From an uncultured Leptotrichia sp. (GTDB lineage: Bacteria; Fusobacteriota; Fusobacteriia; Fusobacteriales; Leptotrichiaceae): 55,639 bases of DNA. Where the stretch lies: contig CAUUWI010000001.1 in the NCBI GenBank assembly GCA_963548925.1, positions 1 to 55,639 of the forward strand, read 5' to 3'. A program made the position numbers and the translations under genes. The notes under the pieces were generated by a model. That model did not search any database, was not told the DNA's origin, and was given only the letters and a program-made list of their open reading frames with translations. The number at the start of each line of letters is the position of its first letter. The stretch's first letter is position 1. Positions 20,085 to 40,467 of the stretch are shown here, piece after piece.

Positions 20085-20684
20085 CTATAATAAATTCGTC
20101 CATTTATCAAAATTATATTCTTTTGTACAAATTGCATCAAATTCTATTTTTTCATCTTTTATATGTTTAGCATATAATTCTAACTTTTCAGGCTGTCCTT
20201 GTAATTCTGGTGATACTAAACATAACTTATACCCCATACTTTTTATTTTTCTATAAATTTCATTATCAATAGGTAATTTACTAAAACAGTCTACCCATAC
20301 CCAATCAACTTTTCCCTGCATCTTTTCTAATGTATCCAATCCTTCATATTCAGAATATCTTAGGGCAATATTTTTTTCTCCTCTGTCAGATAATAATTTT
20401 ATCATTGGAAAGGAAGAATCAAGAAAAAAATAATCTTTTATATTATATTTTTTTAGTAATTCTAAAATTTTCAATTCTATTCTTTCACTTTTTATATTTA
20501 ATATCATTGTTCCATGATTATATTGTTTTAGGTATTCTTCAAAATCTTCTCCTAAAATAAAAGGATCATGATTTATATAGATTTTCCCATCAACATTATC
20601 CCTTAAATCTATCTCAACACCATATTTTTTAGGTAATTTTTCCAATTCTTCTAATTTATTTATTCTATGTGCTATAAATTCCAC
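20085..20684 (-). CDS. GDPD/PI-PLC-like phosphodiesterase (TIM barrel)
   Basis: IAHR, GVEIDLR, HDP, LNIK and DAICT motifs. Confidence 0.7.
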   Translation of the reverse strand: MEFIAHRINKLEELEKLPKKYGVEIDLRDNVDGKIYINHDPFILGEDFEEYLKQYNHGTMILNIKSERIELKILELLKKYNIKDYFFLDSSFPMIKLLSDRGEKNIALRYSEYEGLDTLEKMQGKVDWVWVDCFSKLPIDNEIYRKIKSMGYKLCLVSPELQGQPEKLELYAKHIKDEKIEFDAICTKEYNFDKWTNLL

Positions 20685-21388
20685 TACTCTACACCTCTTT
20701 TTTTCAGTTCTAAACTAAATGCCATTGTTCTCTTTATAAATTTCCATTTAGAGGCTAAACCTGTATTCCAAGTAGACTGCCCATGTATTCTTTCAGGAAA
20801 TAAAACATCAAATCTTATAACTTTTAGTTTATTCTTTTTAGCCATATATAATGTATACAAATCAAGAGAAAAATCTTTTGGAGGATTTACCCAGCTAGAA
20901 AAAAACTCTTTTGAAAAAATATTTGGCTGTGCATTTATATCGTACAGAATTTTACCCATAAAAATTGTTTCAAATACAGACATTCCAAATGTAAAAAATT
21001 GATCAAAAAATGGTCTTCCTTTTCTATTTCCTTTGACATAAATATTTTTATTCCAATTTTCTTTTTCTAAAATTTCATAAGATTTTATCACATCTTTAGG
21101 ATCCGTCTGCATGTCTGCATGCGTCCATCCTACAAAATCTCCTTTTGCTTCTTTTAATCCCTGTAATATTCCATATCCATATCCTTGATTCACAGGTACT
21201 AAAACTGTTCTTGCAAATGAAAACTTCGGTAAAAGCTCCTCAAATATTTTTGCTGAATTATCTGTTGAACCATTATTTACAAGAATTACTTCTATTTCTT
21301 CATTTTTAATAACATTATTAAATTTTTCAAGAATTAGAGGTATATTTTTTTCTTCATTGTAACATGGAACTATTATTGAAAGTTTCAT
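20684..21388 (-). CDS. GT2 polyprenyl-phosphate glycosyltransferase
   Basis: IVPCYNEE, NNGSTD, NQGYG, HADMQTDP and ERIHGQS; lies next to a GtrA gene. Confidence 0.85.
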   Translation of the reverse strand: MKLSIIVPCYNEEKNIPLILEKFNNVIKNEEIEVILVNNGSTDNSAKIFEELLPKFSFARTVLVPVNQGYGYGILQGLKEAKGDFVGWTHADMQTDPKDVIKSYEILEKENWNKNIYVKGNRKGRPFFDQFFTFGMSVFETIFMGKILYDINAQPNIFSKEFFSSWVNPPKDFSLDLYTLYMAKKNKLKVIRFDVLFPERIHGQSTWNTGLASKWKFIKRTMAFSLELKKRGVE

Positions 21389-21406
21389 TCTATATTTCCT
21401 CCTTTT

Positions 21407-21790
21407 TTATCTGAAAATTAAAAACTTTTGTCCTAAAAAATTTAATATTGTACTAACTCCTGTTGCACATAAAAATGCAAACATTTCACTTCCAAATAAC
21501 AAAAGTGTATATTTATTTACTTGCGAATTAATAAAAGCTGTTACTATGTACAATACTGCATATTTTAAAATTTCCTTTATCTGGAACTTTGGACTTTTAA
21601 ATGTCCAGTATTTATTAATTATAAATCCTACTATTGAACCACAAATAAATGATAATGTTTTTGCTATCGTTCTTTCTATACCTAATATCATAAAAATTTT
21701 ATATGTTAAAAAATCTACAATAACAGCCGTTCCTCCGCCTACGAGAAATTTTAAAATTTCCTTCTTGTCAAATTTATTTAAATTTATCAT
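21407..21790 (-). CDS. GtrA family flippase
   Basis: 127 aa with four TM segments; KFLVGG, NKYWTF and NFLGQKFLIF. Confidence 0.88.
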   Translation of the reverse strand: MINLNKFDKKEILKFLVGGGTAVIVDFLTYKIFMILGIERTIAKTLSFICGSIVGFIINKYWTFKSPKFQIKEILKYAVLYIVTAFINSQVNKYTLLLFGSEMFAFLCATGVSTILNFLGQKFLIFR

Positions 21791-22461
21791 TTTTTCAATA
21801 TCTCCAATAATTCATTAAAATTTTGTATTGACTGACATTTATCATTGTCTGTTTTAGAATACCATAAAGATTTCATACCATATTCCATAGATCCTAATAC
21901 ATCTTTTTTTAAACTGTCTCCTACAAATAAAACCTCTTCAGGAGTTACATCTAATTTTTCTAATATTTTATTATATATTTTAAAATTCGGTTTTTCAACT
22001 CCCACTTCTTCACTTGTAACTATCGCATCAATATACTTATCTATACCTAGTTTTCTTATTTTCCTATGCTGTATATGAACTGTCAAATCAGTACACACAC
22101 CTATTTTTATCTTTTTTTGCTTACAAAATTCTAAAACTTCCAATACGTTAGCATTCAATTTCATATTTTTTAAAATATGCTGCCAATATATTTCATACAT
22201 TTCAAGAGCTATAGAAAAAGGATTTTCATTTAAATTTTCAAGAGTTTTCTGACAATACAAAAGTCTATTATGCGAAGAAGCTACATTACCTAATGTACTC
22301 TTTACATCTTTTTTTGCCTTATCAAACGCTTTATAAAATTGTTCTTTTGCTATTTTTAGATTTTGACAAGTGTATTCACATATTTTGTTTATCCCTTGTT
22401 CATTTAACTCATTGTAGCTATAAAGAGTATCATCTAAATCAAATATAACTGCCTTTATCAT
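21787..22461 (-). CDS. HAD family phosphatase
   Basis: FDLDDTL, EKP and VGDSLKKD. Confidence 0.88.
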   Translation of the reverse strand: MIKAVIFDLDDTLYSYNELNEQGINKICEYTCQNLKIAKEQFYKAFDKAKKDVKSTLGNVASSHNRLLYCQKTLENLNENPFSIALEMYEIYWQHILKNMKLNANVLEVLEFCKQKKIKIGVCTDLTVHIQHRKIRKLGIDKYIDAIVTSEEVGVEKPNFKIYNKILEKLDVTPEEVLFVGDSLKKDVLGSMEYGMKSLWYSKTDNDKCQSIQNFNELLEILKK

Positions 22462-24530
22462 TAATTAATCCCTTCCTCTCTCATTTTATAGCTTATTGAA
22501 ATCAATATTATCATTTCGATTATTCCATTAAGATTATTTATATAACTTAAATCTTTGTTTAAAATCTCATCTAAATTTGGGATTATTCTTTCAGCAATGT
22601 TGCTAAAATTAATTATTTTATTATTTAAATCTTTACTACTGAAAACAACAACTTGTTTTGTTAAATCGTCTTTATAGTCATGATTAACAGCTATATTCAG
22701 TTGTCTAAGTTCAAAAATAAAGTTATCTAGGTTTATATCTGCATTTAATGTGATTTCTAAATCTAATTTAACACTATGATTTTCAACGGTATAATCTGTT
22801 AATGTTCTATCAAAATATTTTATTAATATATCTGCATATTTTTTTTGAGGATAAATATATTTTATTGCATCAGGCATTCTTTGCTCAATAGACTCCAAAA
22901 CCTTTTCCTTACTGTATCCTCTATGATAAGTGTCTCTTTGGATTTTCCAATATCTTCTTAATTTTTCATCAACATCCATATATATTTTTAAATCAAGATT
23001 TTTTCGCATTTTAGGAAGGTATAAAGCATGAAGCCCACATAATACAATATAAGGTTTGGACTTTACTTTAGAACCTTCAGTAAATTTTCCTGTATCATGA
23101 TCATATTCTACTCTAAATACATTTTGGCTTCTTCTTAAATTATTTAAATCTTCAGCTTGTTTATGAATATAGTTGGCTTTTGGATTTAATGCTGTTATCT
23201 GTTTCCACATTTCATTTCCTCTTTCCCATTTATGATCTCCATCACCTTCAAGAAAAAGAATATTTCTTTCTCCAAATATATTTTTTATCATTTCAATTAA
23301 TGTACTTTTACCTGCTCCGCTATCTCCTGATATACCAATAGAAAAAGATTTATTTTTTCTTTTATAGAATAAACTTTCTGCAATTCCCAATCGATACATC
23401 ATATAGCTTGTATACGTTAATACTGCTGTAAGCATTGTAAAAACTATATTTATAAACATAAAATTAGATATTTTTAAAAAACTTAGATTATAATTCATAA
23501 AATATAGATCAGTATATGTTGTCTTATGAGCAAATATAAAATATATTCCATATAATATGTTCAGAAATAGGTAAATATAAATATTTACATATTTATCCAT
23601 ACTGACATTTACAAAAAATATTGTAATAAAAGGTACAATCCAGACATACCATCCTGGCATAGGAAGAACCAATATTAAAAATATGGAAAATAATACTCCG
23701 CAGAAACTGTATAATAAATTTTTATTTATCTTTTTTAAGCTGAAAGCTTTTAAATAAATACACATAATTGCTAATATAGATAAATATATTCTATTATTTT
23801 GATATTGTAAAAATATACTGGTTACACCTTTTTGTTCTTTATTCATTATAACCATTTTCATAAAATTTTTCTCTGCATCGAAAAATGGTAAAATTATTAA
23901 TATTGTTAATAAAAAAGACATACCTATAGATTTTGTCGCCTCAACAAAGCCATCTTTTTTGTATATATACAGATATAGCAATGGAATAATTGCCAATATA
24001 TGAAGTTTTGAAGACAGTGCTAAAGCCAACATTATAGAAAAAATTGTATTATTTCGTTTATTTATTAAAAAATATAGAGAACCTAATAAAAATATCGTTG
24101 GAATTATATCCAGCTGACCATGCATATATGTAGCATAGAATATAATCGGGGAAGCAAAATATAACACTCCTATATATTTTTTTCTATTTGGAAACATTTT
24201 CACAAAAAAATACAACCCTAATAAATCAAATATAAGACTAGGAATTTTAAATAAAATATTTTTTATGAGAATATTTTTTACTCCTATTGACATAGTTCCT
24301 CCTACCAGCTCTATTAAAAACATGGTTGGAGGATAAGGAAACAAATTAACTTCATTTTTAAAAATAGAATAAGGATTTTCAAATTCTCCTTTTCTAATTT
24401 CATTAATGAAACCGTATATAAATTTCATAAATAAATTATTTTGATAATCTGATGAAAAAAATCCCATTGCTATTATTTTTAAAATTAATACCACAATAAT
24501 AAATATCTCAAATTTTTTAATCTTTTTCAC
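22461..24530 (-). CDS. GT-C-like multipass membrane protein fused to a phosphoribulokinase-like kinase
   Basis: N-terminal ~385 aa is multi-TM with FPYPP and HGQLD; C-terminal part has P-loop GDSGAGKST, TALNPKAN, YDHDTG, GLH, WKIQRD and YIYPQKKYAD; GTG start. Confidence 0.8.
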   Translation of the reverse strand: MKKIKKFEIFIIVVLILKIIAMGFFSSDYQNNLFMKFIYGFINEIRKGEFENPYSIFKNEVNLFPYPPTMFLIELVGGTMSIGVKNILIKNILFKIPSLIFDLLGLYFFVKMFPNRKKYIGVLYFASPIIFYATYMHGQLDIIPTIFLLGSLYFLINKRNNTIFSIMLALALSSKLHILAIIPLLYLYIYKKDGFVEATKSIGMSFLLTILIILPFFDAEKNFMKMVIMNKEQKGVTSIFLQYQNNRIYLSILAIMCIYLKAFSLKKINKNLLYSFCGVLFSIFLILVLPMPGWYVWIVPFITIFFVNVSMDKYVNIYIYLFLNILYGIYFIFAHKTTYTDLYFMNYNLSFLKISNFMFINIVFTMLTAVLTYTSYMMYRLGIAESLFYKRKNKSFSIGISGDSGAGKSTLIEMIKNIFGERNILFLEGDGDHKWERGNEMWKQITALNPKANYIHKQAEDLNNLRRSQNVFRVEYDHDTGKFTEGSKVKSKPYIVLCGLHALYLPKMRKNLDLKIYMDVDEKLRRYWKIQRDTYHRGYSKEKVLESIEQRMPDAIKYIYPQKKYADILIKYFDRTLTDYTVENHSVKLDLEITLNADINLDNFIFELRQLNIAVNHDYKDDLTKQVVVFSSKDLNNKIINFSNIAERIIPNLDEILNKDLSYINNLNGIIEMIILISISYKMREEGIN

Positions 24531-24544
24531 AATTATCTCCTTAT

Positions 24545-25588
24545 TTAAAGATTTTTTCTATATTTTTCAGAATCCCAATTTAAAAGAAAATTTTGTTCTT
24601 CTTCAGTTAAAAAATCCATTTCATCATTTTTATTTAATTCAAGTACCTGTAAATTAAAACTCAATACACTTTCAATCTCTTTGGCTTTTTTTATATTTGG
24701 TGCAATTATGTAAAATTCATTTTCAAAAAATATCACATTAAAACTACCATATTCTAAAACATGTCTTTTAGTAACTTTCAACATATCATCATTTTTATTT
24801 AATACTAATATTTTTTTGTTACAATAAATTAAACTGTCAGGTGAAAAACAATAATTTACTTTATCTATGTTATTATTCTTTATAAAGTTTTTAATTCTAT
24901 TATTTTCACATAAATATACAATATTATTTTCTATAAAATTTTCTAATTTTTTGTATAAATATGTGGAATTTCTGTATGCCTGCATATTAATCTTTAGTCT
25001 ATCTTCTAGTATCTTTAAAACATTTTCATGTAATTCAATAACCTCATCAACCTTTTTACCACTAACTATTAACCCATGGTTTTTCAAAAAAACTATATTT
25101 GCTTTTTGAGGATTATCTAATTTTGAAAATTTATCAAAAAATTCTTTAGCTAAAGAAATTCCAGGTGTTTGATAGTCTATTATCAAACTATCAGGAAACA
25201 TAGATTTTAACTCCTTCATTCCATTTGCTCTCGAAGTAAATATATTAATTAATACCGGATGAGTATGTAAAGTATATTTCTCTGTTATTGCATGTAAAAA
25301 AGTTTCAATTGAGGCTCTTTTCCCTTCAATTAGAGTACCTTCTAACAATTTCTTTTCATCACTGCGTTTTATTTCAAAATGACTTTCAAAGTAATCTACA
25401 ATTTTTTTATAATTTACTTTAGAGTAACCTACATTTTCTTCCATTTCGGAAAGCTGATATCCAGAAGATTTTATAAACATTGTTTCATCATCAATTTTTA
25501 CAGATGTATTTCCTCCACCTGCTTGTATAATATCTTCTCGCATTCCTGCATATTTGGACAGTTTTATTAAAACATTAATCTCTTTCAT
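24545..25588 (-). CDS. class II aldolase/epimerase (RhaD/FucA/AraD fold)
   Basis: GGGNTSVK, RASIETFLHA, HTHP and LKNHGL metal-binding motifs. Confidence 0.85.
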   Translation of the reverse strand: MKEINVLIKLSKYAGMREDIIQAGGGNTSVKIDDETMFIKSSGYQLSEMEENVGYSKVNYKKIVDYFESHFEIKRSDEKKLLEGTLIEGKRASIETFLHAITEKYTLHTHPVLINIFTSRANGMKELKSMFPDSLIIDYQTPGISLAKEFFDKFSKLDNPQKANIVFLKNHGLIVSGKKVDEVIELHENVLKILEDRLKINMQAYRNSTYLYKKLENFIENNIVYLCENNRIKNFIKNNNIDKVNYCFSPDSLIYCNKKILVLNKNDDMLKVTKRHVLEYGSFNVIFFENEFYIIAPNIKKAKEIESVLSFNLQVLELNKNDEMDFLTEEEQNFLLNWDSEKYRKNL

Positions 25589-25652
25589 TTAAAATTCCTT
25601 TCATTTAATTAAAAGCAAATTTTTTTCCTTATGAATGAACAAAAAAATTTAC

Positions 25653-25668
25653 TATTATACAGTCTATG
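25653..25668 (-). repeat. short copy of the IS30-end-like motif
   Basis: TATTATACAGTCTATG; 15 of 16 positions match 30225-30240. Confidence 0.45.
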
Positions 25669-25682
25669 TAAAAAATACTTTA

Positions 25683-27983
25683 TTATTCTTTTATTCCTAA
25701 ATAAACTCCTGTTTTTACATATGCTTCTTTATTATCTATTGTAAAAAATCTAATTTTTCTAATTTCTTCATTTTTATTATTTTTAAAACCTATAAATTGA
25801 TGATCTTTATTATTTAATTGTTGTATTTCTAATACTGGTTCTTCCTTTTCATTATAACCAACTATTTTTAATTTTTGTCTATTGAAAGCTCTAATTCTAT
25901 CAGCATATAGATACTTTACATTACAGTTTTTTTCAAGATTAATTTCATGAATTAACGGTGTATCCAAATTTGTTATTCTCACTATAAAAAAACGGTTGAT
26001 GTTAACAAAATTTTCATCTAATTTTTGCAATTTGTTATCATAAAAATATAAATTTAAATTACCACTTATCATAAAAATATCATCACCAACTGGTATTAAA
26101 GTATCAGTATTTAAGAAAAATTTATAATATTTCCCCCAGTCAGTCATAACTTCTGCACTTTTTATTGAAAAATTTTCACTAGTCTCACCAATCTCATTAT
26201 TATCAAAAACAGAAAAACGTATTATAAAAATGAATAACATTATAACATAAAATATATTTTTTATAAAAAGCCAACCACTAAAAGATATTCCTTTCTTTTT
26301 TAGTTTACTTGCTAAAATAGCCATTACATTATTCAAAAATATTACAATTAATATAATAAGTAAAATGATTATAAACATTGAATGTCTTCTTATAACCATA
26401 TTATCAGCTTTATGTAACCAATCAAAATTAGAATTTGAAGACATATCAATTTTATAAAACCATGTATTTAGTAATATCACTTCAGAAATTATAAAAATCA
26501 GTGCTATTGAAATAATACTGTTTTTATTTTTAAATTTAATACTCTTATATAAGAAAAAGCATATTAATGTACTCCAAATTAGGAAAAAAATAATATTTAA
26601 ACTGATAATATTAGAACTTGTAATTTCTGGATAAAATAAAAAAGTAATATATTTTGTAGATTGGTAAAATATTATTTTCAAAAGTTGCCAAATACTTGTG
26701 TTAAGTGCGAAACCTCCATTATTAGATACTATTTTTATATATAATAATTCTAAAAAACTAGACAAAACTACAGTAAATATAAAAATCTTTTCTCTTTTCT
26801 TTATTTTTTTATAAAATATTGTTAAAATTAAAATCCCTATTGGAATCAAAGTAACATAATAAGCTTTTGAAATACAAATAAAAAATGTAAAAAGTAAAAA
26901 AACTAAGTATTTTCTTTTAGAAAGATTTTCAAAATTCAACAACGAGATTAAAACTATTCCTCCAATTCCATAATAAGCAAAATTAAAAAAATAATGGCCT
27001 TCAATACTTGAGGTAAAAGTTACACCACCACCTAATATTACAGCTATACATAATCTAAAAAGTATATTTCCATATTTTTTATAATCTTTCAACACAAAAA
27101 TAGAACCCATTAAAGTAATTATATAAATTCCAATATTTTGCATTAAGTATATAGACAATTTTAAATTAAAACCAAATATTTTTACTATAAATAAAGTAAT
27201 TATTCTTTGAAAAAAAGGCCAATAACCTACATCTGAAATAAAAAGATTATCCAATACATTTTTGTGTACTGCACTTATCATAAAATTATTTAATGTTTCA
27301 TAATAAGGCTGTGCATTAAATGTTAATATCGGAATCTTAACATTTATTAAAAAGAAAATCATAAAACTTGTAAATATATATATTTTATTACTATTTTTAT
27401 TTTCCTCTTTTGATAATTTAAAAATTTTTAAAAAGCAAAGTACTGTAAGACCTAAAAATAATATTTGAAATATAACAATTCTATCAAATTTATAATATTG
27501 CATTTCTAATACAAGACCTTTATTTATAGCTACATTATTTTCAATCACATTTCCAAGTGAAGTATCATTTGAATAATATAATGATACTATATTTCCTTTT
27601 TCTCCATCAATTCCTTCTACTTTTAGTGTAGCTTCTCCTTCTTTTAATCCATGAAAATTAAAATCTATATTATTGATTTCACGATTTTTTAATGTGTAAG
27701 CATATATTATTTTCTCATCTTTATATTTTCCTTGTTCTAAAACAACTTTTATACGTCCCTGATTTATTCTTGAATAGGTTTCTATTCTTAAGCCTAACCG
27801 ATATATTTTTCCTGGAATATATATTTTCTGAGCTATTTTTGAATTTTTATCAATTTCTTGCGTAATTTCTGAGTTATAATAATTAGTTGCTACTTTTTTA
27901 TCTAAATTACCAATTATATAAGAAATCCCAGGAATCACAATTCCCATAATAAGGAAAAAAATCCATATAAATGTTTTTTTCAT
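25683..27983 (-). CDS. multipass membrane protein, probable GT-C glycosyltransferase with soluble N- and C-terminal domains
   Basis: 766 aa with many TM segments; loop QPYYET...GYWPFFQR resembles Gtr-type transferases; cassette context. Confidence 0.6.
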   Translation of the reverse strand: MKKTFIWIFFLIMGIVIPGISYIIGNLDKKVATNYYNSEITQEIDKNSKIAQKIYIPGKIYRLGLRIETYSRINQGRIKVVLEQGKYKDEKIIYAYTLKNREINNIDFNFHGLKEGEATLKVEGIDGEKGNIVSLYYSNDTSLGNVIENNVAINKGLVLEMQYYKFDRIVIFQILFLGLTVLCFLKIFKLSKEENKNSNKIYIFTSFMIFFLINVKIPILTFNAQPYYETLNNFMISAVHKNVLDNLFISDVGYWPFFQRIITLFIVKIFGFNLKLSIYLMQNIGIYIITLMGSIFVLKDYKKYGNILFRLCIAVILGGGVTFTSSIEGHYFFNFAYYGIGGIVLISLLNFENLSKRKYLVFLLFTFFICISKAYYVTLIPIGILILTIFYKKIKKREKIFIFTVVLSSFLELLYIKIVSNNGGFALNTSIWQLLKIIFYQSTKYITFLFYPEITSSNIISLNIIFFLIWSTLICFFLYKSIKFKNKNSIISIALIFIISEVILLNTWFYKIDMSSNSNFDWLHKADNMVIRRHSMFIIILLIILIVIFLNNVMAILASKLKKKGISFSGWLFIKNIFYVIMLFIFIIRFSVFDNNEIGETSENFSIKSAEVMTDWGKYYKFFLNTDTLIPVGDDIFMISGNLNLYFYDNKLQKLDENFVNINRFFIVRITNLDTPLIHEINLEKNCNVKYLYADRIRAFNRQKLKIVGYNEKEEPVLEIQQLNNKDHQFIGFKNNKNEEIRKIRFFTIDNKEAYVKTGVYLGIKE

Positions 27984-27986
27984 TTT

Positions 27987-28796
27987 TTATCCTCCCAAAT
28001 AATTTTTATCTTCTTTTACAAACTCTTTCCAGTACTTTATTGTATCCTGATATTCTTCATAATCTTTTGGAGTTCCCCAGCCAATATATCTGTTTATTTC
28101 AAAAACTTTTGCACTATATCCTAAATCTAATAAGTGTGAAATTACACTGTCAACATAAAATTCATTGTTTATTCTGTCATTTTCTTGTATCATTTTTTCT
28201 GCACTTTTCACAAATACACTTCCTTCTTTAAACCAGAAAGTTGCCACTATTGCATGATCATTCATTGGAGTATCTGATATAGCTTTTTTTATTGACAATC
28301 CTGTTATTTCATCTTTATCATTTACTTTAACCCATCCGTAAGCATTTGGATTTTTCAAAACTGCTTCATTATTTCTATATGTAAAAACCAATGCATCACA
28401 TTCTTTTTTCATTTTTTCAAATTTATTCTGATCAATAATCATTCCATTGTCACAGCCAGCAATTAGCAGCTCTTCATTATTATTTATTTTTTCTTTTGCC
28501 AATAAGCAGGTACATGCCTGTCCTTCTGTTAATTTATCTACTGTTATGAAATTCGCTTTAGGGAAAAATTCTTTTATTTTTTCTTCAATACCATCTTTTT
28601 TATGAAAATCCCTATCTACGTATATAAGATTATTTCCATCAGTTTCTAATCCAGGCAAATCCAATGTAGCACAAACAACCATAGGATATTCTTTCCCAGT
28701 TCTTCTGTCTATTGTGGGGATAACAGGTTTACTTAATTTATATCCTGCATCTGAAAATCTTTTTCCTTCTCCTGCCATTGGGATTAATATTTTCAT
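27987..28796 (-). CDS. sugar-phosphate nucleotidyltransferase-like protein
   Basis: IPMAGEGKRF..AGY..SKP, TEGQACT, NNEFY and WGTPKD. Confidence 0.8.
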   Translation of the reverse strand: MKILIPMAGEGKRFSDAGYKLSKPVIPTIDRRTGKEYPMVVCATLDLPGLETDGNNLIYVDRDFHKKDGIEEKIKEFFPKANFITVDKLTEGQACTCLLAKEKINNNEELLIAGCDNGMIIDQNKFEKMKKECDALVFTYRNNEAVLKNPNAYGWVKVNDKDEITGLSIKKAISDTPMNDHAIVATFWFKEGSVFVKSAEKMIQENDRINNEFYVDSVISHLLDLGYSAKVFEINRYIGWGTPKDYEEYQDTIKYWKEFVKEDKNYLGG

Positions 28797-29579
28797 TTAC
28801 TTCACCATTCCTTTCACAGTTTCAATCCAAAAAAGATATTCTTTTAAGTCTTCAGGAGTTCCCCATTGACAAAATTTTTTTACATTTGTAGGAACCCAAA
28901 CTTTTAAACCATCTTTCACTATAAAGTTATACGGAAGACTTGCATAAAATTCTCCATTTATAGCCTGATTCTCATTTTCAATCAGTTTTCGACAATATTT
29001 TTTCAATATTTCTCCTGTTTTAAAATAATAAACCCCGGGAGAGTGTTTAGCTTTCAGCTTATCCTCTTCAAAAGAATATTTTTCTCTGATTTCTATCAAA
29101 TCATTATTTTCATCTGTCAAGCATGATGCATAATAATTCTTTTCAGGCAATAAATTAGGATGAAATCCCGTATAGCAAGGAACTGCACCTTCACTTCCTC
29201 TACTTGTTACTTCCTGCTTAAATTTTTCAAAATCCCAAGACATATAAAAATCACAATAATTTATTATACATTGTTCGTTATCGTCTATTTTCTCTGATGC
29301 TCGTAATACATCATATACAGGGCCTTTTTTTACCCAGCTATCTATTTCAAAAATTTTCCCATCAGGTGCTAATTCTAAAAGTCTTTTTCTCATTTCTGGA
29401 TCGTTATCTAGATGTTCTTTTCGACAAATAAATAAAAAATCTTTTTCATTTGGATACATTCCTTTTACAATCCATTCTATCATTGACTTTCCTTGAACTT
29501 TTATAAATGGTTTTAAATCTTTATATCCAGCTGCTACAAATCTTGAACCGTAGCCTGTCATTGGTATTATTATTTTCAT
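28797..29579 (-). CDS. sugar-phosphate nucleotidyltransferase-like protein, paralog of the previous gene
   Basis: IPMTGYGSRF..AGY..LKP, NYCD, NGEFY and WGTPED. Confidence 0.8.
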   Translation of the reverse strand: MKIIIPMTGYGSRFVAAGYKDLKPFIKVQGKSMIEWIVKGMYPNEKDFLFICRKEHLDNDPEMRKRLLELAPDGKIFEIDSWVKKGPVYDVLRASEKIDDNEQCIINYCDFYMSWDFEKFKQEVTSRGSEGAVPCYTGFHPNLLPEKNYYASCLTDENNDLIEIREKYSFEEDKLKAKHSPGVYYFKTGEILKKYCRKLIENENQAINGEFYASLPYNFIVKDGLKVWVPTNVKKFCQWGTPEDLKEYLFWIETVKGMVK

Positions 29580-30255: not shown

Positions 30256-30687
30256 CTATTTCTTAAATACAAATAATTTAGAAAAGATATAATTCAAGAC
30301 AATCACAACAATATTAGATATAATTTTAATTCCAAGACTAAACATCCCTTGCTGTGAATAAGAAATATATTTTACTACAAAAAAGTCTACTCCAACTACA
30401 ACAAAAATTTGATCTATAATAGCTGTTACTCCTCTTGCCAATATAAATTGAATAAATTCTTTTATTATTGATTTCCCCTTATTTTTACTTTCAAAAACCC
30501 ATATTCTATTAGTAAAATATTGGAATAATATACAAATAATAGTGTCTAATATGTTGCCTACTCCTGTTGGTAATTTCCATATATTTACAAATAAATAAAA
30601 TAACAATATATTTAAAATTGTTGCAAGTACTCCAAAAAATAAATATAAAAACGTTTCTTTATTTGCTAATTTTTTTATTAAACTCAT
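30256..30687 (-). CDS. GtrA family flippase
   Basis: YLFFGVLAT, TNRIWVF and NYIFSKLFVF; four TM segments. Confidence 0.88.
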   Translation of the reverse strand: MSLIKKLANKETFLYLFFGVLATILNILLFYLFVNIWKLPTGVGNILDTIICILFQYFTNRIWVFESKNKGKSIIKEFIQFILARGVTAIIDQIFVVVGVDFFVVKYISYSQQGMFSLGIKIISNIVVIVLNYIFSKLFVFKK

Positions 30688-30698
30688 ATTTCACCAAC

Positions 30699-31607
30699 TT
30701 ATTTTTTATTAACTGATCTATAAATATAATCTTTTGAATTTAAAGAATTTTGTAAAATATGATGCAAATATCTTATTATAATGCTTAAAATTAAAAAAAT
30801 TCCAAAAAATCCTAGACTTAAAACTATAAATAAAGAAGCCCAACCTTCAACAGTTTCCTTCACAATTCTTGTAACTAAACTATAAATTACTCCCATGCCA
30901 AATAATGCAAAAAAAACAAAAGCCAATCTTTGAGTAAATAACATAATAGCATCTGTATAATAAATTAAAGTGTCAAACATTAACATTAAATTCTCAGAAA
31001 ATCCTCTATTATTTTTATAATTCATATCTACTACTATAGAAGAAGTTTTTAATCCAGAGAGAACATATGCAACATTTCTATTTATAATTCTCTTTCCTAC
31101 TTCTACTACTTTATTTTGTCCTCTTCTTGAAGATAAAGTCATAACAGATGAACTAATATCTTCATTAAATGAATTTTTAAAGTATTTATTTAAAATACTA
31201 TAAAATATTTTAGAAGATTTTCTTAATTTTTTTGGTGTTAAAAATACAAAATCGTATCCTTCTTGACTCTTTTTATACATTTCTATTATTTTATTATAAT
31301 CTATATCAAATGAAATATCTTCTATTTCGATAATATAATCACCTATTGCTATTGCTGTTCCAGCATTTAATGCTTGCTGGGTTCTATGTTTTATTGGCAA
31401 TTTTATTTCTGTATGTTTAAAGTCTAAAGAATTTAGTGATTTTAAAGAACTATTTTTAGAAGTATTATCTACTATTACAATCTCACTGTTTTTAAAATTA
31501 TTTTTTAATATCTCATTTATATTTTGAATCTTAGTAATAATCTCTTTATTTTCTTCATTTATGACTAAAACAACTGATATATAATTCTGTTCTAAATTTT
31601 TTATCAT
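30699..31607 (-). CDS. atypical GT2 (GtrB-like) polyprenyl-phosphate glycosyltransferase
   Basis: YISVV, SEIVIVDN, AGTAIAIGDY; two C-terminal TM segments with VEGWAS; degenerate DXD. Confidence 0.7.
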   Translation of the reverse strand: MIKNLEQNYISVVLVINEENKEIITKIQNINEILKNNFKNSEIVIVDNTSKNSSLKSLNSLDFKHTEIKLPIKHRTQQALNAGTAIAIGDYIIEIEDISFDIDYNKIIEMYKKSQEGYDFVFLTPKKLRKSSKIFYSILNKYFKNSFNEDISSSVMTLSSRRGQNKVVEVGKRIINRNVAYVLSGLKTSSIVVDMNYKNNRGFSENLMLMFDTLIYYTDAIMLFTQRLAFVFFALFGMGVIYSLVTRIVKETVEGWASLFIVLSLGFFGIFLILSIIIRYLHHILQNSLNSKDYIYRSVNKK

Positions 31608-31621
31608 TTTTTTCCTCCATA

Positions 31622-32740
31622 TTATAAAATTTCATCTAAATCGTACATCGTATTTATTTTTCCAGAAAATATCGTATAAAAATCTGGATTTTGAGAATAT
31701 TGTTTTATAATTGTCGGCCTTGAATCATCTATCTCAGAAGCAACTAAAATAGGTTTTATAGTAAATAATGATTTAACATACTTTATTTCTATATCTTCAT
31801 TTAGATATTTTTTTGCAATTTGAACCATTTCTTCAAATGCTGTTTCTGGAAAAATTCCGCAATGAATACAACCTTTTGAATGTTCAGGATGTTTTTGCTT
31901 TTCTACATCTCCACAACAATCGTATGGTGGTAAATTTTCATAATTTGTAAAATGTGGTGTTCTTGAAACAGTTGTTATAGAATGATAACCTGTTAAACCA
32001 AATGGCATCAATGAGAAAAAAGGTCCATCCATAACTGTCAATCCAACATTTTTAATATTATCTGAAACTTCACACAAAATTACTTCACAAAATTCATATT
32101 TTATTGGTAAATATTCAAATCCTAATAAATCATGGATTATATTGATTCCCGCATAGGTTGCATTTAAAACAAACGGTGCCGAATATGTTTCTCCATTCGA
32201 AGTTTTAAACACATATTCTTTCTCTTCTTTTTTTATTTTTACTATCTTCGTTTCAAATTTAAAATTACATCCTGATCTTACTAATTCTTTATACAGCATT
32301 TTCCCAATTATCTTAGCATCAAATGAATATTCCTGTGTCAAGAATGCCTTATCAATAGTGTTTTCATTAAAGAATTTACCTTTAGGAATTTCATCACATC
32401 TTACATTTAAATTATCACAAAATTTCTGAAATTGTTCTCCATTTGCCCAACTATAGTCAGATGCTACTGCATAAACTTTTTCAAATTTATCATTGATACC
32501 TTCTTTAAAGTCATTATAAAATCTATTGAAATATTTAGCTGATTTTGATGCTGTAGAAAAAGACCTTGGGTAGTGATAACCATTATGTAACCTAGCTTGA
32601 TTTATATAAGAACCTCTATTGAATGGCTCTTTTTCTACTTCTATTATCAATATTTTTTCATTAGGATTTTTTTCTAAACTTCGTTTTGCAGCATACATAC
32701 CATATATTCCTGCTCCTATTATAATTTTGTTATATTTCAT
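31622..32740 (-). CDS. FAD-dependent oxidoreductase (DAO-like)
   Basis: IIGAGIYG, SYINQARLHNGYHYPRS, TVMDGPFFS and SGKI; ATG 32740 follows an AAGG RBS. Confidence 0.85.
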   Translation of the reverse strand: MKYNKIIIGAGIYGMYAAKRSLEKNPNEKILIIEVEKEPFNRGSYINQARLHNGYHYPRSFSTASKSAKYFNRFYNDFKEGINDKFEKVYAVASDYSWANGEQFQKFCDNLNVRCDEIPKGKFFNENTIDKAFLTQEYSFDAKIIGKMLYKELVRSGCNFKFETKIVKIKKEEKEYVFKTSNGETYSAPFVLNATYAGINIIHDLLGFEYLPIKYEFCEVILCEVSDNIKNVGLTVMDGPFFSLMPFGLTGYHSITTVSRTPHFTNYENLPPYDCCGDVEKQKHPEHSKGCIHCGIFPETAFEEMVQIAKKYLNEDIEIKYVKSLFTIKPILVASEIDDSRPTIIKQYSQNPDFYTIFSGKINTMYDLDEIL

Positions 32741-32763
32741 ATGATAACCTTTCCTTTCAATTA

Positions 32764-34758
32764 TCAATTTAATTTGTATAATTTGATGTCTTTTACTACA
32801 AATTTTATTTTACTATTATTTGTTAAAGTAAATTCCATTTTAGGAGTTTCACTACTTAATTCAAATTCTATATCCGTTTTTTCTTGATTACTTGAAATTT
32901 TCTTCAAACTATTTATTTTTTCATTAACAGTAGATGTTATTTCAAACATACCTGTTGAGTTTTTTGGAAAATCCACCAAAAATTCTACTTTGTATTTTCC
33001 TGCAGTTAATGTAACATAAGGTCCGTATAAAACACTATTTTCTTTCATTTCGACATTCCCATTATTTACAACTGCACCATTAAGAGTATATTGCATTGCT
33101 AAAAAACTATTCCACTCTTTCCATCTATTAGTACTTTCATCATAAGAACAAACATTTTCTAATTTATAATCGTTTATCCAACTATAAATCGTTTTAAAGT
33201 AATTTGCATTTAAAGGATTGTATATTCCAAACCATTTATCAGGAAATTGGCTTGAATTACCATTAATTGTTTTTATTTTAAAATGATTGGCTATTTCAAA
33301 AGCATTATTTTGATAAATATATTCAGGTTTTTCTTTTCTTTCACTATTTACAATATAAAATACTTTACATTCTTTTGGTGGATTTTTAATTTTTGATAAA
33401 TACTTTTTTTCTGTTATTCGGTTCCAGGTTGAATTAACACCATTTATTCTTATATTTGAAATCCATAATGAAATAAATAATAAAATAAATAAATGTTTCT
33501 TTTTCTGTTTATTTTTTATATTTGAAAATATATAATTTCCCATTATTGAAGTTGCGATAGCCATAGGAAACGTTAGATATAAAAAATATCTTATTGGAGC
33601 TCTAACAGAAGATGCACCAGGAAAAAATTTATAAATTAAATACCATAAGGATACACCATTTGATGAAATTTTTATTGTAATTAATACACTTACTATAATT
33701 GCTAATACAAAAGAAAATAGTATCGAAGAATTTTTTATTAAAATTTTTTTCTTACAAATATAAAAAACATAAATAAAAAACAATACAAATACCGTTATTA
33801 AAATAATAGAAAATCCCATATCTTGTTCAAGCAATGATCTTTCTGATAATTTCATTCTCATTATTATATTTCCCAATAATAAGTTATCTTCACCTACATT
33901 TATTAAATCAACAACTTCAGGCATAAAAAGTACAGGATTTTTATAAGGATATCCTCCACTTTTTTTCAATAATGGTAAATATAAATTTATAAAAGGAAGA
34001 ATTAAAATCACTGTATAAATCATATAAAATAAAATATCTTTCCATATTTTACATAAAGTTTCTTTTATATATATATAGCTTTCTTTATTTTTTTCTATAA
34101 TTAATTTAAAAATAATTATTCCTAAAAAAGTTAAAATAAATAATGTCGTAAAAAATGCAATATACCAAGCTGTATATAATATTAATATGTACCAACTAAT
34201 TATAAAAAAACCATATAATCTTCTTTTTTTGTTATTATTAAAAAATATAATAAAATTCATTACAAATATTGTAAAAAGTGGTAACATACTACAAACCATT
34301 AATTGAGTATGTCCTACATGTTTAGCATATGTAGAAGAAAAAGAAAATGCAACTGTACCAAACAGGGACCATTCTTTACTCAATTTAAACTTTTTATCTA
34401 ATAAAATAAACATTGATATTGTTCCGATTACATGTACTAAAATTAAAGTATATTTATAAGCATTAAACATATCCATTCCTAGTATTCTAAAAAAACTATG
34501 AATTAGACCAAAAAATAAAAACATATCTGAATATGCTAAAACATTTTTAACAGGATAAAACATAGAAAGTTCTCCAAATTTTTCATATCCCTTAAAAAAA
34601 TTATACCAATGTTCTACTATTATTGTTGTTAATTTTCCATCTCCATTATTTCCAAATAGATTATTTGAAAAAAGAATATTTCTGAAAAAAAATATTTCAG
34701 ATAATATTAAACATATAACAATAAACAAACCGCAATGCAAACAATTTTTTTTATTCAT
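32764..34758 (-). CDS. multipass membrane protein, probable GT-C glycosyltransferase with C-terminal YGPY domain
   Basis: GDG..EHW, FYP...LAYSD, H.QL, SVRAPIR and TINGNSSQFP; many TM segments. Confidence 0.65.
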   Translation of the reverse strand: MNKKNCLHCGLFIVICLILSEIFFFRNILFSNNLFGNNGDGKLTTIIVEHWYNFFKGYEKFGELSMFYPVKNVLAYSDMFLFFGLIHSFFRILGMDMFNAYKYTLILVHVIGTISMFILLDKKFKLSKEWSLFGTVAFSFSSTYAKHVGHTQLMVCSMLPLFTIFVMNFIIFFNNNKKRRLYGFFIISWYILILYTAWYIAFFTTLFILTFLGIIIFKLIIEKNKESYIYIKETLCKIWKDILFYMIYTVILILPFINLYLPLLKKSGGYPYKNPVLFMPEVVDLINVGEDNLLLGNIIMRMKLSERSLLEQDMGFSIILITVFVLFFIYVFYICKKKILIKNSSILFSFVLAIIVSVLITIKISSNGVSLWYLIYKFFPGASSVRAPIRYFLYLTFPMAIATSIMGNYIFSNIKNKQKKKHLFILLFISLWISNIRINGVNSTWNRITEKKYLSKIKNPPKECKVFYIVNSERKEKPEYIYQNNAFEIANHFKIKTINGNSSQFPDKWFGIYNPLNANYFKTIYSWINDYKLENVCSYDESTNRWKEWNSFLAMQYTLNGAVVNNGNVEMKENSVLYGPYVTLTAGKYKVEFLVDFPKNSTGMFEITSTVNEKINSLKKISSNQEKTDIEFELSSETPKMEFTLTNNSKIKFVVKDIKLYKLN

Positions 34759-38337: not shown

Positions 38338-40467
38338 TTAAATATCTATTTTTATTAAGTTTAATTTTATATCTTTTCCTGAATTATTTATTATAACTAC
38401 TTCAAAATCTTTCATAAATGAATCTAAAGTAAATTCAACTACATATAGATTTTCACTTTTTGATATTATTAAATAACTTATAAGATTCGATTTTTCTTCA
38501 TTATTTTTTTTAGCATATAAATTCAATAATATTTTTTCACTATCAAAATTCTCTCCAGAAATAGTCAACTTATATTTATTTGGTCTTAATTCTATATATG
38601 GTCCATATAATATTGAATTATTTGAAATTATATTGTTATTATTTAATAATGTTTGACCACTAATAAACATCTTTTCATTAGAAATAATATAGTTATCAAA
38701 TTTTTCACTTTTTATCTTTTTAGATTCTAAAATTTTATTTAAATTTTTTCCTTTATAATATAAATTATATTCATCAATATCATTACTAGATGTATTAATT
38801 TTATAAGTATCATTACTCAACATTAATGTTTCTTTATAATTAGAAACAAAATCTATCTGTTCTTTTGAATTAATAATATTCTCTTTTGTTTTAGATTCAT
38901 CATAAACAACATTATAATTATTTAATAACATTAAATAATTTAAAGGATGTCTACCTTTTTCATTAATAAAATTTAGTTCATATCTGCCATCTGAATTTTT
39001 TCTTATTAATTCTAATATTTCAAATTTATTCTTTAAAATAGAAAAGACTTCTTTTGATGAATTGAGCCTTAAATATCCCAAATTTATATTTAAAATTATA
39101 TATATTAAAATCATAAACTTTATTCCTAATATTAACTCTGTTTTCAAAGTAAATAAAATATATATTGATAAACTCACTATAATTAAAATTACAATTTGAA
39201 ATTTTTCAGGTGTTTCAAATACATAACCTTTTGTAAATGCCATTAAAGTTGCAACATTCATGGTAACAGGCTCTACTGTTTTATTATTTTCTATAAAAAA
39301 GATAGCAATAGTATAAATTAACATAAAGCCTATCGCTTTTATAATTTTTTTGGAATCTATGTTGTATTTTTTTTGGTATATTAGAATAAATAAAATTGCA
39401 AATGGAACTAGGTGATCTGTATATCTTCCATAAATATAATAATTATATTTTATTAAATGTTCTATAAAAAATAGAACTGAAATAATCGTAGAAAAAAACA
39501 TACCTAATATCGTAAATAAGCCTAATATTTCAAAATTTATTTTTTCTTTTTGACTATTTTTCAAAAGTTTTAACAAAATTATTATTAATAAAAATAATAA
39601 TCCAAAAGTCATAATTTCTAGGTAATATGTATACGAAAAAACTGCTCTCATCATAGCAAAAACTGATTTTTTATTAGGAAATTTTACCAGTTTATTTATG
39701 ACATCGGAAAATGTATTTCTTAACACTTCTCCTTTAAAAATAACCCTATTTATTATTTTTTTTACAATTATATCTGTTAGAAACATTGGAAAAAAACCAA
39801 TTAGAGTAAAAATTATTTTAAAAATTTTTATTTTATATTTTATATATATAAACATATACATAATACATATAGTTGGAATCATTGCTAACATTCTTCCATG
39901 TATTGAATATCCATATGCCAAGAAAAATCCTAGTAATACACTATTTTTTTTAATATTATTATCACCATTTTTTATCAAAGATAATAAAAGAAATAGTATA
40001 ATCCAAACAATTACTCTAACCCAAATTTCATTCCAAGAATACAGAGCCATTGAAAAATTACCTGGATATAAGCCAATTAAAATTGATATTGTAATTAATA
40101 GCTTCTTATTTTTTAAATCAAAAAAATTTTTTAATACATTGAAAACTATACAAGGAATAATAGATAAAATTAAAGAATTTAACAATAATATTCCCCTATA
40201 TAATGTTATTGGATTTTTTATTAACATAAAAAGTAAAGAATAAATTATTGAACCACCCCAGCCATAATAAGCAGTATTTATATCCCATTTATTTCCTGAA
40301 ATCCAAGCTGGGATTGCTAAAGTATTGATTTCATCTGGTGTTATGACAGGAGTTTTTATTTTTGTTATCAAAAAAAAGTTAAAAATTACAAAAAGAAAGA
40401 TTAGTACAAAATAATCATTTCTATTTTCTATCTTATTCTTCCAACTTAAAAATTTAAATTTATACAT
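38338..40467 (-). CDS. multipass membrane protein, probable GT-C glycosyltransferase with C-terminal YGPY domain
   Basis: TPDE first-loop acidic motif, YYGWG, WNE, HGR and YGRY; many TM segments. Confidence 0.65.
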   Translation of the reverse strand: MYKFKFLSWKNKIENRNDYFVLIFLFVIFNFFLITKIKTPVITPDEINTLAIPAWISGNKWDINTAYYGWGGSIIYSLLFMLIKNPITLYRGILLLNSLILSIIPCIVFNVLKNFFDLKNKKLLITISILIGLYPGNFSMALYSWNEIWVRVIVWIILFLLLSLIKNGDNNIKKNSVLLGFFLAYGYSIHGRMLAMIPTICIMYMFIYIKYKIKIFKIIFTLIGFFPMFLTDIIVKKIINRVIFKGEVLRNTFSDVINKLVKFPNKKSVFAMMRAVFSYTYYLEIMTFGLLFLLIIILLKLLKNSQKEKINFEILGLFTILGMFFSTIISVLFFIEHLIKYNYYIYGRYTDHLVPFAILFILIYQKKYNIDSKKIIKAIGFMLIYTIAIFFIENNKTVEPVTMNVATLMAFTKGYVFETPEKFQIVILIIVSLSIYILFTLKTELILGIKFMILIYIILNINLGYLRLNSSKEVFSILKNKFEILELIRKNSDGRYELNFINEKGRHPLNYLMLLNNYNVVYDESKTKENIINSKEQIDFVSNYKETLMLSNDTYKINTSSNDIDEYNLYYKGKNLNKILESKKIKSEKFDNYIISNEKMFISGQTLLNNNNIISNNSILYGPYIELRPNKYKLTISGENFDSEKILLNLYAKKNNEEKSNLISYLIISKSENLYVVEFTLDSFMKDFEVVIINNSGKDIKLNLIKIDI

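Follow-up and report, generated by a model that had tools for sequence, protein, structure and literature searches.

Nine adjacent genes in the DNA of an uncultured Leptotrichia species (a stretch of 55,639 nucleotides, contig CAUUWI010000001.1, hereafter called the window) appear to make an unusual activated sugar from ribulose 5-phosphate (Ru5P) and to add it extracellularly to a surface polysaccharide. The part of the set that would deliver the sugar is of a known type, with a family 2 glycosyltransferase (GT2), a GtrA-family membrane protein, and a membrane glycosyltransferase of the GT-C fold. The sugar-activation core appears to be undescribed and unusual; it comprises a phosphoribulokinase (PRK)-like kinase, a HAD phosphatase, a class II aldolase-fold enzyme, a GDPD-fold protein, and two nucleotidyltransferases, NT_a and NT_b. 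We consider it probable that the set encodes a Ru5P-derived activated sugar together with an exchangeable delivery module. The likeliest predicted product is a ketopentofuranose. The two-layer explanation developed below is, taken as a whole, somewhat more apt to fail in one of its parts than to hold throughout, and the proposal that a ketopentofuranose is made via a cyclic phosphate is more tentative still. In the literature searched, which covers few subscription journals, nothing joins PRK, GtrA, and glycosyltransferases, no nucleotide of xylulose or ribulose is named in connection with polysaccharides, and no prior description of the pathway was found; the initial annotation of this DNA likewise knew of none for the nine-gene set in Fusobacteriota.

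That annotation, made from the sequence of the window, had described nine co-oriented, mostly abutting genes of named families. All nine open reading frames (ORFs) are indeed found on the minus strand between positions 20085 and 29579 (Table 1), and a family or fold can be assigned to eight of the nine proteins, the exception being one of 766 residues. Neighboring genes overlap by 1-4 nt or are separated by 0-18 nt, except for a 94-nt gap between the genes for the 766-aa protein and the 347-aa aldolase-fold protein. The edges of the block are marked by gaps of 676 nt upstream and 230 nt downstream. The window, which publicly named homologues place in Leptotrichia, is about 25% G+C and contains a long minus-strand polysaccharide locus with many GT4, GT2, and methyltransferase genes. 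A scan for promoters and terminators was uninformative in such AT-rich DNA (105 promoter-like sites versus 85.7 expected; 2 terminator-like sites versus 1.5).

The nine-gene arrangement is far beyond chance; the same genes, in a conserved order, recur in several phyla. A genome scan yielded 79 loci, mainly in Lachnospiraceae and other Clostridia, of which 54 have the order aldolase, NT_a, NT_b, GT-C-kinase fusion, HAD, (GtrA), GT2, GDPD in its two commonest forms. Gene presence was counted by tblastn over 81 related loci (Table 1). A 548-aa PMT_2 (GT-C) protein follows the cassette in 42 loci. Among 61 related genomes, the full-length GT-C-kinase fusion is present in only three (the window's own, one congener, and one member of another genus), and 36 others match the kinase part only. 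Beyond the family, 1095 relatives of the fusion protein were found at E 0.001 among the candidates scored, under names that include Leptotrichia, Clostridium, and Eubacterium. The set is thus not special to Fusobacteriota, the phylum named in the initial annotation: it is shared with Clostridia, and E. coli, Azospirillum, and Hirschia carry it on plasmids.

In E. coli, a complete eight-gene cassette lies on a 33-kb IncR plasmid (L090, 6022-14984; L092, 2901-15077). The isolates that carry the two E. coli cassettes came from human stool and from the sediment of a frog farm; the cassettes are 100% identical, and in strain ES3 the cassette lies between two copies of IS26 in a composite-transposon-like arrangement. 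The plasmid cassettes of Azospirillum brasilense and Hirschia baltica (pHbal01) adjoin O-antigen-type genes; the former stands next to ABC-transporter and gmd genes, and the latter comprises the whole set with a methyltransferase inserted within it. All three of these plasmid-borne cassettes include a GtrA gene. Between the Leptotrichia and the proteobacterial cassettes, the GT2 proteins are 50-55% and the GDPD-fold proteins 43-45% identical; NCBI annotates the proteobacterial genes only generically. We regard the nine-gene set as a self-contained, horizontally mobile module. Beside the cassette of pHbal01 (L100, 15546-18079) are another GtrA gene, a glycosyltransferase gene, and a UDP-glucuronate decarboxylase gene, which look like a separate xylose-type three-component set.

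The kinase domain of the fusion protein matches the Pfam PRK/uridine kinase family (E 8.6e-36, 124 bits versus a cut-off of 22). As the initial annotation had suggested, it is PRK-like rather than uridine-kinase-like: it scores 197.7 bits against the NCBIfam PRK subfamily NF005655 and 79.6 bits against the uridine kinase model, and the solved structures closest to it are phosphoribulokinases (E 2e-37 to 2e-36, versus 2e-15 for uridine kinase). The P-loop G-D-S-G-x-G-K-S-T is present. An invariant histidine, H478 in Y-x-H-x-T-G, aligns with the histidine of the PRK sequence N-H-x-T-G, and D-G-D-H (D430/H433) aligns with D-D-Y-H of PRK, the identity of the base aspartate being a mapping by alignment. 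A catalytic Asp-His dyad is described for PRK in the available excerpts of PMC9978339.

The phosphatase matches Pfam HAD_2 (E 5e-28). Its top NCBIfam model is NF053830, the haloarchaeal ribulose 1,5-bisphosphate (RuBP) 5-phosphatase (E 4.6e-51, 173.7 bits), and this model ranks first for all 17 cassette HAD proteins compared, from four phyla (best E 6.9e-57). Matches to pyrimidine nucleotidase models are also seen (YjjG, E 1.1e-32). According to excerpts of PMC9700705, the haloarchaeal enzyme is specific for RuBP, yields ribulose 1-phosphate (Ru1P), and shares its operon with a class II aldolase for Ru1P. The earlier idea of phosphorylation at C1 followed by dephosphorylation at C5 is consistent with a PRK-like kinase paired with a phosphatase of this predicted type.

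The 347-aa protein matches Pfam Aldolase_II (PF00596, E 4.7e-15, 56.4 bits versus a cut-off of 22.2), and its top NCBIfam matches are the aldolase halves of bifunctional aldolase/short-chain dehydrogenase (SDR) enzymes. Across 17 sequences, G25-G26-N27, S93-I94-E95-T96, H99, H108, and H110 are invariant and H171 is nearly so; we take these positions to be equivalent to residues of FucA. By this alignment, the enzyme retains its phosphate loop as well as the His and Glu residues that bind metal. The HAD-aldolase fusions suggest that the aldolase-fold enzyme acts after the phosphatase, on a ketose 1-phosphate, and not on a 5-phosphate before the kinase, in contrast to the initial annotation, in which epimerization of a pentulose 5-phosphate came first. 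That the enzyme most likely epimerizes a ketose 1-phosphate is our reading of its place in the set; an MtnB-like dehydratase and a true aldolase making a longer ketose from dihydroxyacetone phosphate (DHAP) were set aside provisionally, since for either one the following enzyme is lacking.

NT_a and NT_b are paralogous, as first proposed (hhalign probability 99.6%, 28% identity). The top NCBIfam matches of the pair are rmlA_long and GlmU, with E values from 2.5e-6 to 1.7e-4 (for NT_b, 2.5e-6 and 7e-6, respectively), and the closest solved structure to NT_a is 4evw, an NDP-sugar pyrophosphorylase (E 2.5e-8). NT_b is 56-72% identical to its clostridial homologues. The N-terminal loop P-M-x-G-x-G-x-R-F...K-P is invariant in NT_a, and the nucleotide loop G-x-G-x-R...K is invariant in both proteins. 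NT_a and NT_b form a single ORF in 48 of 75 loci and in all three plasmid cassettes. One homologue fused to a GDPD part passes the cut-offs of both PF12804 (44.1 versus 27 bits) and PF00483 (35.1 versus 21.2 bits).

The 199-aa protein has no Pfam match, either alone or across 14 homologues (GDPD was tried to E 10), and a PDB sequence profile search with its family returned chance-level rows only, with no GDPD chain. Its AlphaFold model (pLDDT 94.6) is a GDPD-type TIM barrel: in Foldseek, GDPDs rank first (E 1.3e-6 to 1e-4, query TM 0.62-0.73; TM 0.65-0.73 for the leading matches at E about 1e-6), in line with the GDPD-like enzyme first proposed. Residues H6, R7, R28, E67, R68, E70, D89, and D132 are invariant in the family and E24, D26, and H39 nearly so; H6-R7, E24/D26, and H39 presumably occupy the H-R, E-x-D, and H-D/N motif positions of GDPDs. 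NCBI names the proteobacterial homologues 'PI-PLC/GDPD family'. The family forms 1486 clusters at 50% identity. A search for longer relatives gave 207 proteins; nucleotidyltransferase domains are present in 111 of the 120 listed, most of which have 716-769 aa. The one fused homologue that was checked opens with the GDPD part, which gives way to nucleotidyltransferase sequence at about residue 203. Among the remaining nine of the 120 listed, five carry GT2; GT61, WecG/TagA, and a 2H phosphoesterase-type domain occur once each; and one has no recorded Pfam domain. The GDPD-NT fusions, together with the single 2H cyclic-phosphoesterase-type fusion, give circumstantial support, short of proof, to the nucleotidylated or cyclic-phosphate step of the initial annotation. 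A complex prediction for GT2 and the GDPD-fold protein scored 0.00 and was counted neither way.

Natural fusions of HAD-aldolase, GT-C-PRK, GDPD-NT-NT, and NT-NT all occur, the HAD-aldolase and GDPD-NT-NT forms in aquatic metagenome loci. Eighty such loci with a GDPD-NT-NT fusion were fetched, of which 35 are at least 12 kb long (G+C 0.19-0.40). The GT2, GtrA, and GT-C-PRK fusion queries matched none of the 80 at 50% query coverage. The 35 long loci contain GDPD-NT-NT (35/35), GT61 (33/35), a soluble 459-aa PRK protein (26/35), and a HAD-aldolase fusion in which the aldolase follows the HAD (25/35). In the aquatic PRK protein (L104, 3780-5159), the PRK domain (residues 217-387) comes after a soluble N-terminal domain, ~215 aa long and matching no family, which stands at the position of the window's GT-C domain. 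The conserved core consists of six soluble domains: PRK, HAD, the aldolase fold, the GDPD fold, and the two nucleotidyltransferases. Its partner is a Leloir-type transferase in some loci and a GT2/GtrA/GT-C relay in others. We read this core, which aquatic loci keep with GT61 in place of GT2/GtrA/GT-C, as a nucleotide-sugar pathway, with the GDPD-fold enzyme as part of this core and not of the lipid steps.

A more distant sister set without PRK or aldolase contains a GDPD-like protein (29-33% identical), a HAD, an NT or NT-NT annotated 'GT2', and a WavE-family protein; it is carried by plasmids of Scandinavium goeteborgense (L183), Azospirillum lipoferum 4B (L184), Rhizobium, and Sinorhizobium. 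Because this set recurs without PRK or aldolase, the trio of GDPD, HAD, and NT may be a more general sugar-activation unit. An NT_a-NT_b fusion, 45% and 35% identical to the window's pair, is also found in cyanophages (Synechococcus phage S-SM2, L099, and phage Bellamy). Its neighbors there are class II aldolase-family, sugar isomerase, kinase, transketolase-like, and GT11/GT25 genes, and no phage match was obtained with the PRK-fusion, HAD, GT2, or GDPD-fold gene.

We propose a pathway of two layers, in which each substrate is predicted. In the first layer, the six soluble catalytic domains would convert Ru5P to an activated sugar. The PRK-like domain would phosphorylate C1 of Ru5P to give RuBP, and the HAD would take off the 5-phosphate to give Ru1P. 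Homology, together with the haloarchaeal precedent, points to this sequence. With the 5-phosphate removed, Ru1P could close to a furanose, with its anomeric hydroxyl next to the C1 phosphate. The aldolase-fold enzyme would then epimerize the ketose 1-phosphate at C3 or C4 via a metal-bound enediolate, for example, to xylulose 1-phosphate. Finally, the two nucleotidyltransferases and the GDPD-fold enzyme, acting as one unit, would turn the 1-phosphate into a nucleotide-activated glycosyl donor. A single nucleotidyltransferase suffices for an aldose 1-phosphate. The presence of two, both active-looking and joined to a phosphodiesterase fold, suggests that phosphate reaches the anomeric position in three steps. 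The likeliest, though predicted, order would be formation of a nucleoside diphosphate (NDP)-ester, conversion to a 1,2-cyclic phosphate with loss of nucleoside monophosphate (NMP), and a second nucleotidylation at the anomeric phosphate. The fuller claim is that the six domains constitute the long-missing route to nucleotide-activated xylulo- or ribulofuranose, with GDPD-NT-NT walking the phosphate to the anomeric oxygen and the donor serving Leloir-type GT61 enzymes in aquatic bacteria or a polyprenyl-phosphate relay in Leptotrichia, Clostridia, and the three plasmid cassettes; we hold this to be doubtful.

In the second layer, the soluble GT2 would load the sugar onto polyprenyl phosphate, the putative lipid carrier; GtrA would flip the lipid-linked sugar; and GT-C proteins would transfer it to the surface polysaccharide that is the presumed acceptor. 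The transferases would be the kinase-fused GT-C and probably also the variable 766-aa protein. The initial annotation's assembly of GT2, GtrA, and GT-C within one cassette stands, with the first two recognized by Pfam and the third from a model. The GtrA protein matches GtrA_DPMS_TM (PF04138, E 5.5e-20, 72.1 bits versus a cut-off of 26.1). GT2 matches its Pfam family (E 3.4e-23, 82.8 bits), and its NCBIfam matches include ArnC, PgfS, and PpgS. Its motif H-A-D-M-Q-T-D resembles what we take to be the D-A-D-x-Q motif of DPMS/GtrB. Soluble DPM1/PpgS-like forms of such synthases exist.

For the N-terminal half of the kinase fusion, the predicted structure (residues 1-388, pLDDT 79) firmly indicates a GT-C fold. 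The model matches 9wno with Z 25.9 over 345 aligned residues (root-mean-square deviation 4.0), and its Z scores are 25.9 for glycosylphosphatidylinositol (GPI) mannosyltransferase I, 24.9 for ALG3, 23.0 for ALG6, 20.7 for PimE, and 19.1 for ArnT. Every one of the 38 chains at Z of at least 8 is a GT-C enzyme; below them, scores drop to 4.9 or less. An invariant aspartate, D28, lies in an S-S-D-Y-Q motif directly after the first helix. This agrees with the initial description of a GT-C fused to a PRK-like kinase. The same annotation had called the 766-aa protein 'GT-C-like', which we could not confirm: the protein has 13 hydrophobic segments and no family match in Pfam or NCBIfam. Pfam searches to E 1 with the variable membrane proteins from the window and from the E. 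coli, Azospirillum, and Hirschia plasmids gave only chance rows (E 0.59 and 0.98), and a profile comparison with the Lachnospiraceae PMT_2 family returned nothing for either the 766-aa protein or the kinase-fused GT-C. The congener has two homologues of the 766-aa protein, at 45% and 37% identity, against 87-98% for the other eight genes; the second genus has two copies, 46-47% identical; and the 586-aa membrane protein that closes the E. coli cassette is weakly similar (E 1e-4). Because it has diverged while the other eight genes are conserved, the 766-aa protein is a candidate for, and probably is, an acceptor-specific transferase of the serotype-converting type.

Several observations weigh against this interpretation. 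The scores of the PRK, RuBP-phosphatase, and nucleotidyltransferase domains all lie below curated equivalog or gathering cut-offs (kinase, 197.7 versus 236 bits for NF005655; HAD, 173.7 versus 330 bits for NF053830; NT_a, 22.8 versus 27 bits for NTP_transf_3), and NT_b has no Pfam match. The GDPD assignment of the 199-aa protein comes from the fold of its model, without a Pfam GDPD match. The two nucleotidyltransferase domains could be a catalytic and regulatory pair instead of two steps. No enzyme in the window is assigned to the opening of the 1,2-cyclic phosphate with the phosphate kept on the anomeric oxygen. On the membrane side, GtrA is absent from most clostridial loci; the 234-aa GT2 has no hydrophobic segment and lacks the membrane helices of the GtrB type; the conserved kinase-fused GT-C has no explained role; and we know of no precedent for a polyprenyl-phospho-ketofuranose. 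No cassette carrier has a glycan structure assigned to it, and none has a known ketose glycan. In E. coli, the cassette was found in only 2 of 5426 complete genomes (megablast, blastn), and the one carrier examined has an O35-type locus (O35-family wzx/wzy), not O95/O97. No link to a known xylulose-bearing glycan emerged from this nucleotide-level E. coli search, one that a divergent O95/O97 copy could escape.

Among the alternatives, the one nearest to the proposed pathway is that Ru1P is isomerized to an aldopentofuranose 1-phosphate (D-arabinose or ribose), that the nucleotidyltransferase pair is one heteromeric enzyme, and that the pentofuranose is delivered from polyprenyl phosphate. NT_a and NT_b are closer to sugar-1-phosphate enzymes (RmlA, GlmU, GalU) than to CMP-ketoacid synthases; the relatives of the GT-C include the polyprenyl-phosphate-arabinose enzymes Emb, AftA, AftB, and AftD; and the partners in the aquatic loci are GT61 proteins, whose plant relatives use pentose donors. 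Extracytoplasmic pentofuranose addition is also already known (excerpts of PMC11127046). We nevertheless judge this alternative unlikely: no known aldose-ketose isomerase family is found among the cassette proteins by Pfam or NCBIfam, one nucleotidyltransferase would suffice, the fused phosphodiesterase-fold domain would be left without a role, and the known pentofuranose systems use 5-phosphoribosyl 1-pyrophosphate (PRPP) with a UbiA-type synthase, an enzyme absent here. If it were true, the cassette would supply pentofuranose side chains by a route that does not need PRPP. Less likely again is a phosphodiester-linked pentulose 1-phosphate or polyol phosphate, for which the nucleotidyltransferase would make an NDP-1-pentulose and the GDPD-fold protein would be a phosphotransferase that releases NMP. 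GDPD/PLC-fold enzymes do form and cleave phosphodiesters, and direct nucleotidylation of Ru1P, whose phosphate is non-anomeric, would give a donor like CDP-glycerol; ketose nucleotides of this non-anomeric kind have a precedent in CDP-6-fructose. The distant sets of GDPD-like, HAD, NT(-NT), and WavE proteins without PRK or aldolase would also fit. However, the DPMS/GtrB-like GT2, GtrA, and GT-C would be left without a role despite co-occurring with the core (GT2 in 75 of 81 loci, and on the three plasmids), and Pfam and NCBIfam find no reductase in the cassette that could make a polyol.

Two further explanations would take the kinase, phosphatase, and aldolase out of sugar activation altogether. 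The kinase might be a uridine/cytidine kinase that boosts the supply of nucleoside triphosphates, with the HAD a nucleotidase, the aldolase part of unrelated catabolism, and the sugar coming from elsewhere. The fusion is indeed named 'uridine kinase' in public annotation, and its HAD partner matches the YjjG nucleotidase model as noted above. Given the wide lead of PRK over uridine kinase in both model and structure comparisons, the higher score of the RuBP phosphatase model over nucleotidase models in 17 of 17 HADs, the HAD-aldolase fusion, and the strict co-occurrence of PRK, HAD, and aldolase with NT-NT-GDPD in unrelated lineages, we find this very improbable. Scarcely credible is a catabolic shunt from Ru5P to DHAP and glycolaldehyde that merely lies beside glycan genes, even though the same three activities are degradative in haloarchaea (excerpts of PMC9700705): the kinase is covalently joined to a GT-C, the three genes are interleaved with glycan genes across phyla and move with them on an IS26-flanked plasmid segment, and bacterial Ru5P already enters central metabolism via the pentose phosphate pathway.

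The proposed pathway can be set against systems that are already known. Like GtrA/GtrB/GtrC of Salmonella and Shigella O antigens and CsbB/GtcA/YfhO of teichoic acids, the cassette combines GT2, GtrA, and GT-C in one operon, and like the Gtr-type systems, it lies in a polysaccharide locus and has a variable, probably acceptor-specific membrane protein. Unlike them, it would build its donor with six extra catalytic domains instead of using a ready-made UDP-hexose; its GT2 is without membrane helices; GtrA is present in only 27 of 81 loci; and one of its GT-Cs is fused to a kinase and conserved, not variable. It resembles the mycobacterial decaprenyl-phospho-arabinose pathway in having a lipid-linked furanose derived from a pentose phosphate, a GtrA-like transporter, and several GT-Cs that share a donor. 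The mycobacterial route, however, runs from PRPP via UbiA and DprE1/E2; it involves neither a nucleotide sugar nor a PRK, class II aldolase, or GDPD-fold protein. As chemistry only, the IspD-IspE-IspF series of the methylerythritol phosphate (MEP) pathway offers an analogy, with a nucleotidyltransferase, a kinase, and formation of a cyclic phosphate with loss of NMP; its kinase and cyclase have other folds, and its product is an isoprenoid precursor, not a glycosyl donor.

In Citrobacter youngae O1/O2 and relatives (Kelly et al. 2024), as described in the available portion of PMC11127046, a GT-C adds pentofuranose after polymerization from a polyprenyl-phosphate donor; the pathway starts from PRPP and uses a UbiA-type polyprenyl phosphoribose synthase with a HAD domain, a MATE flippase, and GT136. 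A five-carbon furanose and auxiliary epimerases that diversify the sugar would be common to both systems (same portion). Pfam and NCBIfam detect none of the UbiA-type synthase, MATE flippase, or GT136 families among the nine proteins, and the cassette differs in its predicted entry via PRK and RuBP, its nucleotide-linked stage, and its GT2. The haloarchaeal non-carboxylating pentose bisphosphate pathway (Sato et al. 2022; excerpts of PMC9700705) also places a HAD RuBP 5-phosphatase beside a class II aldolase fold that acts on Ru1P, and by sequence the cassette HAD appears to be the closest bacterial relative of the haloarchaeal phosphatase model. In haloarchaea, RuBP arises from nucleosides via ribose 1,5-bisphosphate (R15P) isomerase and Ru1P is cleaved in catabolism, whereas the cassette would obtain RuBP from PRK and retain Ru1P for glycan synthesis. 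The aldolase-fold protein of the cassette belongs to another subfamily than the haloarchaeal aldolase and has a C-terminal extension.

The activation of ketofuranoses in bacteria is still an open question, for which the cassette offers a portable set of eight or nine candidate genes. In the excerpts available, a 2019 review of E. coli O antigens lists no genes or nucleotide donor as known for the xylulofuranose (Xulf) of O95/O97 (PMC7685785), a 2025 report attributes fructose activation and transfer in C. jejuni HS:1 to one gene only (PMC11924219), and chlorovirus N-glycans are said also to contain xylulofuranose (PMC9614988). If the proposed pathway is correct, phosphoribulokinase and RuBP would have a role outside carbon fixation, with RuBP a glycan precursor in heterotrophs, and the joining of a GDPD fold to two nucleotidyltransferases would represent a new enzyme logic. 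The surface modification would be widespread, shared by Lachnospiraceae of the gut, Leptotrichia of the mouth, plant-associated Azospirillum, and abundant aquatic bacteria. A ketofuranose branch would not survive the acid steps used routinely in glycan analysis and so could be missed systematically. On the fuller claim above, acid-labile branches of this kind would be far more frequent on bacterial surfaces than is apparent from structural surveys.

Table 1. Predicted products of the nine-gene block, with their positions in the window and the number of related loci (of 81) that contain the gene
Product	Position	Strand	Length or extent	Remarks	Loci
NT_a, sugar-phosphate nucleotidyltransferase-like, first of the paralogue pair	28797-29579	-	260 aa		75/81
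NT_b, nucleotidyltransferase-like, second paralogue	27987-28796	-	269 aa		76/81
Polytopic membrane protein, candidate acceptor-specific transferase	25683-27983	-	766 aa	variable part	5/81
Class II aldolase-fold enzyme with C-terminal extension, putative ketose 1-phosphate epimerase	24545-25588	-	347 aa		69/81
GT-C fold membrane domain of the GT-C-kinase fusion	23367-24530	-	residues 1-388 of 689 aa (ORF 22461-24530)	structure model	80/81 (fusion)
PRK-like kinase domain of the same fusion	22461-23366	-	Pfam 398-575 plus ~110-aa C-terminal region	Pfam	80/81 (fusion)
HAD phosphatase, putative RuBP 5-phosphatase	21787-22461	-	224 aa	Pfam/NCBIfam	74/81
GtrA-family small membrane protein, putative flippase of lipid-linked sugar	21407-21790	-	127 aa	Pfam	27/81
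Short soluble GT2, putative polyprenyl-phosphate sugar synthase	20684-21388	-	234 aa	Pfam	75/81
GDPD/PI-PLC-fold protein, proposed to act on a nucleotide-linked intermediate	20085-20684	-	199 aa	fold	72/81

A second Gtr-like set lies just upstream of the block on the minus strand (30256-34758) and encodes a GtrA protein of 143 aa, a GT2, an FAD-dependent oxidoreductase, and a 664-aa polytopic protein. Neither these genes nor the flanking GT4 genes have a match in the 20-kb stretches around the cassette in the congener and the second genus (L181/L182, genomes G004/G022). The GT2 of this set (302 aa) has C-terminal hydrophobic segments and is GtrB-like. The oxidoreductase (381 aa), which has DAO and NAD_binding_8 matches with no match to the GLF domain, might remodel a lipid-linked sugar. 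Pfam matches neither the 664-aa protein (32764-34758) nor a 709-aa membrane protein (38338-40467). The C-terminal ~100 residues of these two proteins are 32% identical (E 1e-5), a similarity suggesting that they may share an extracytoplasmic binding domain.

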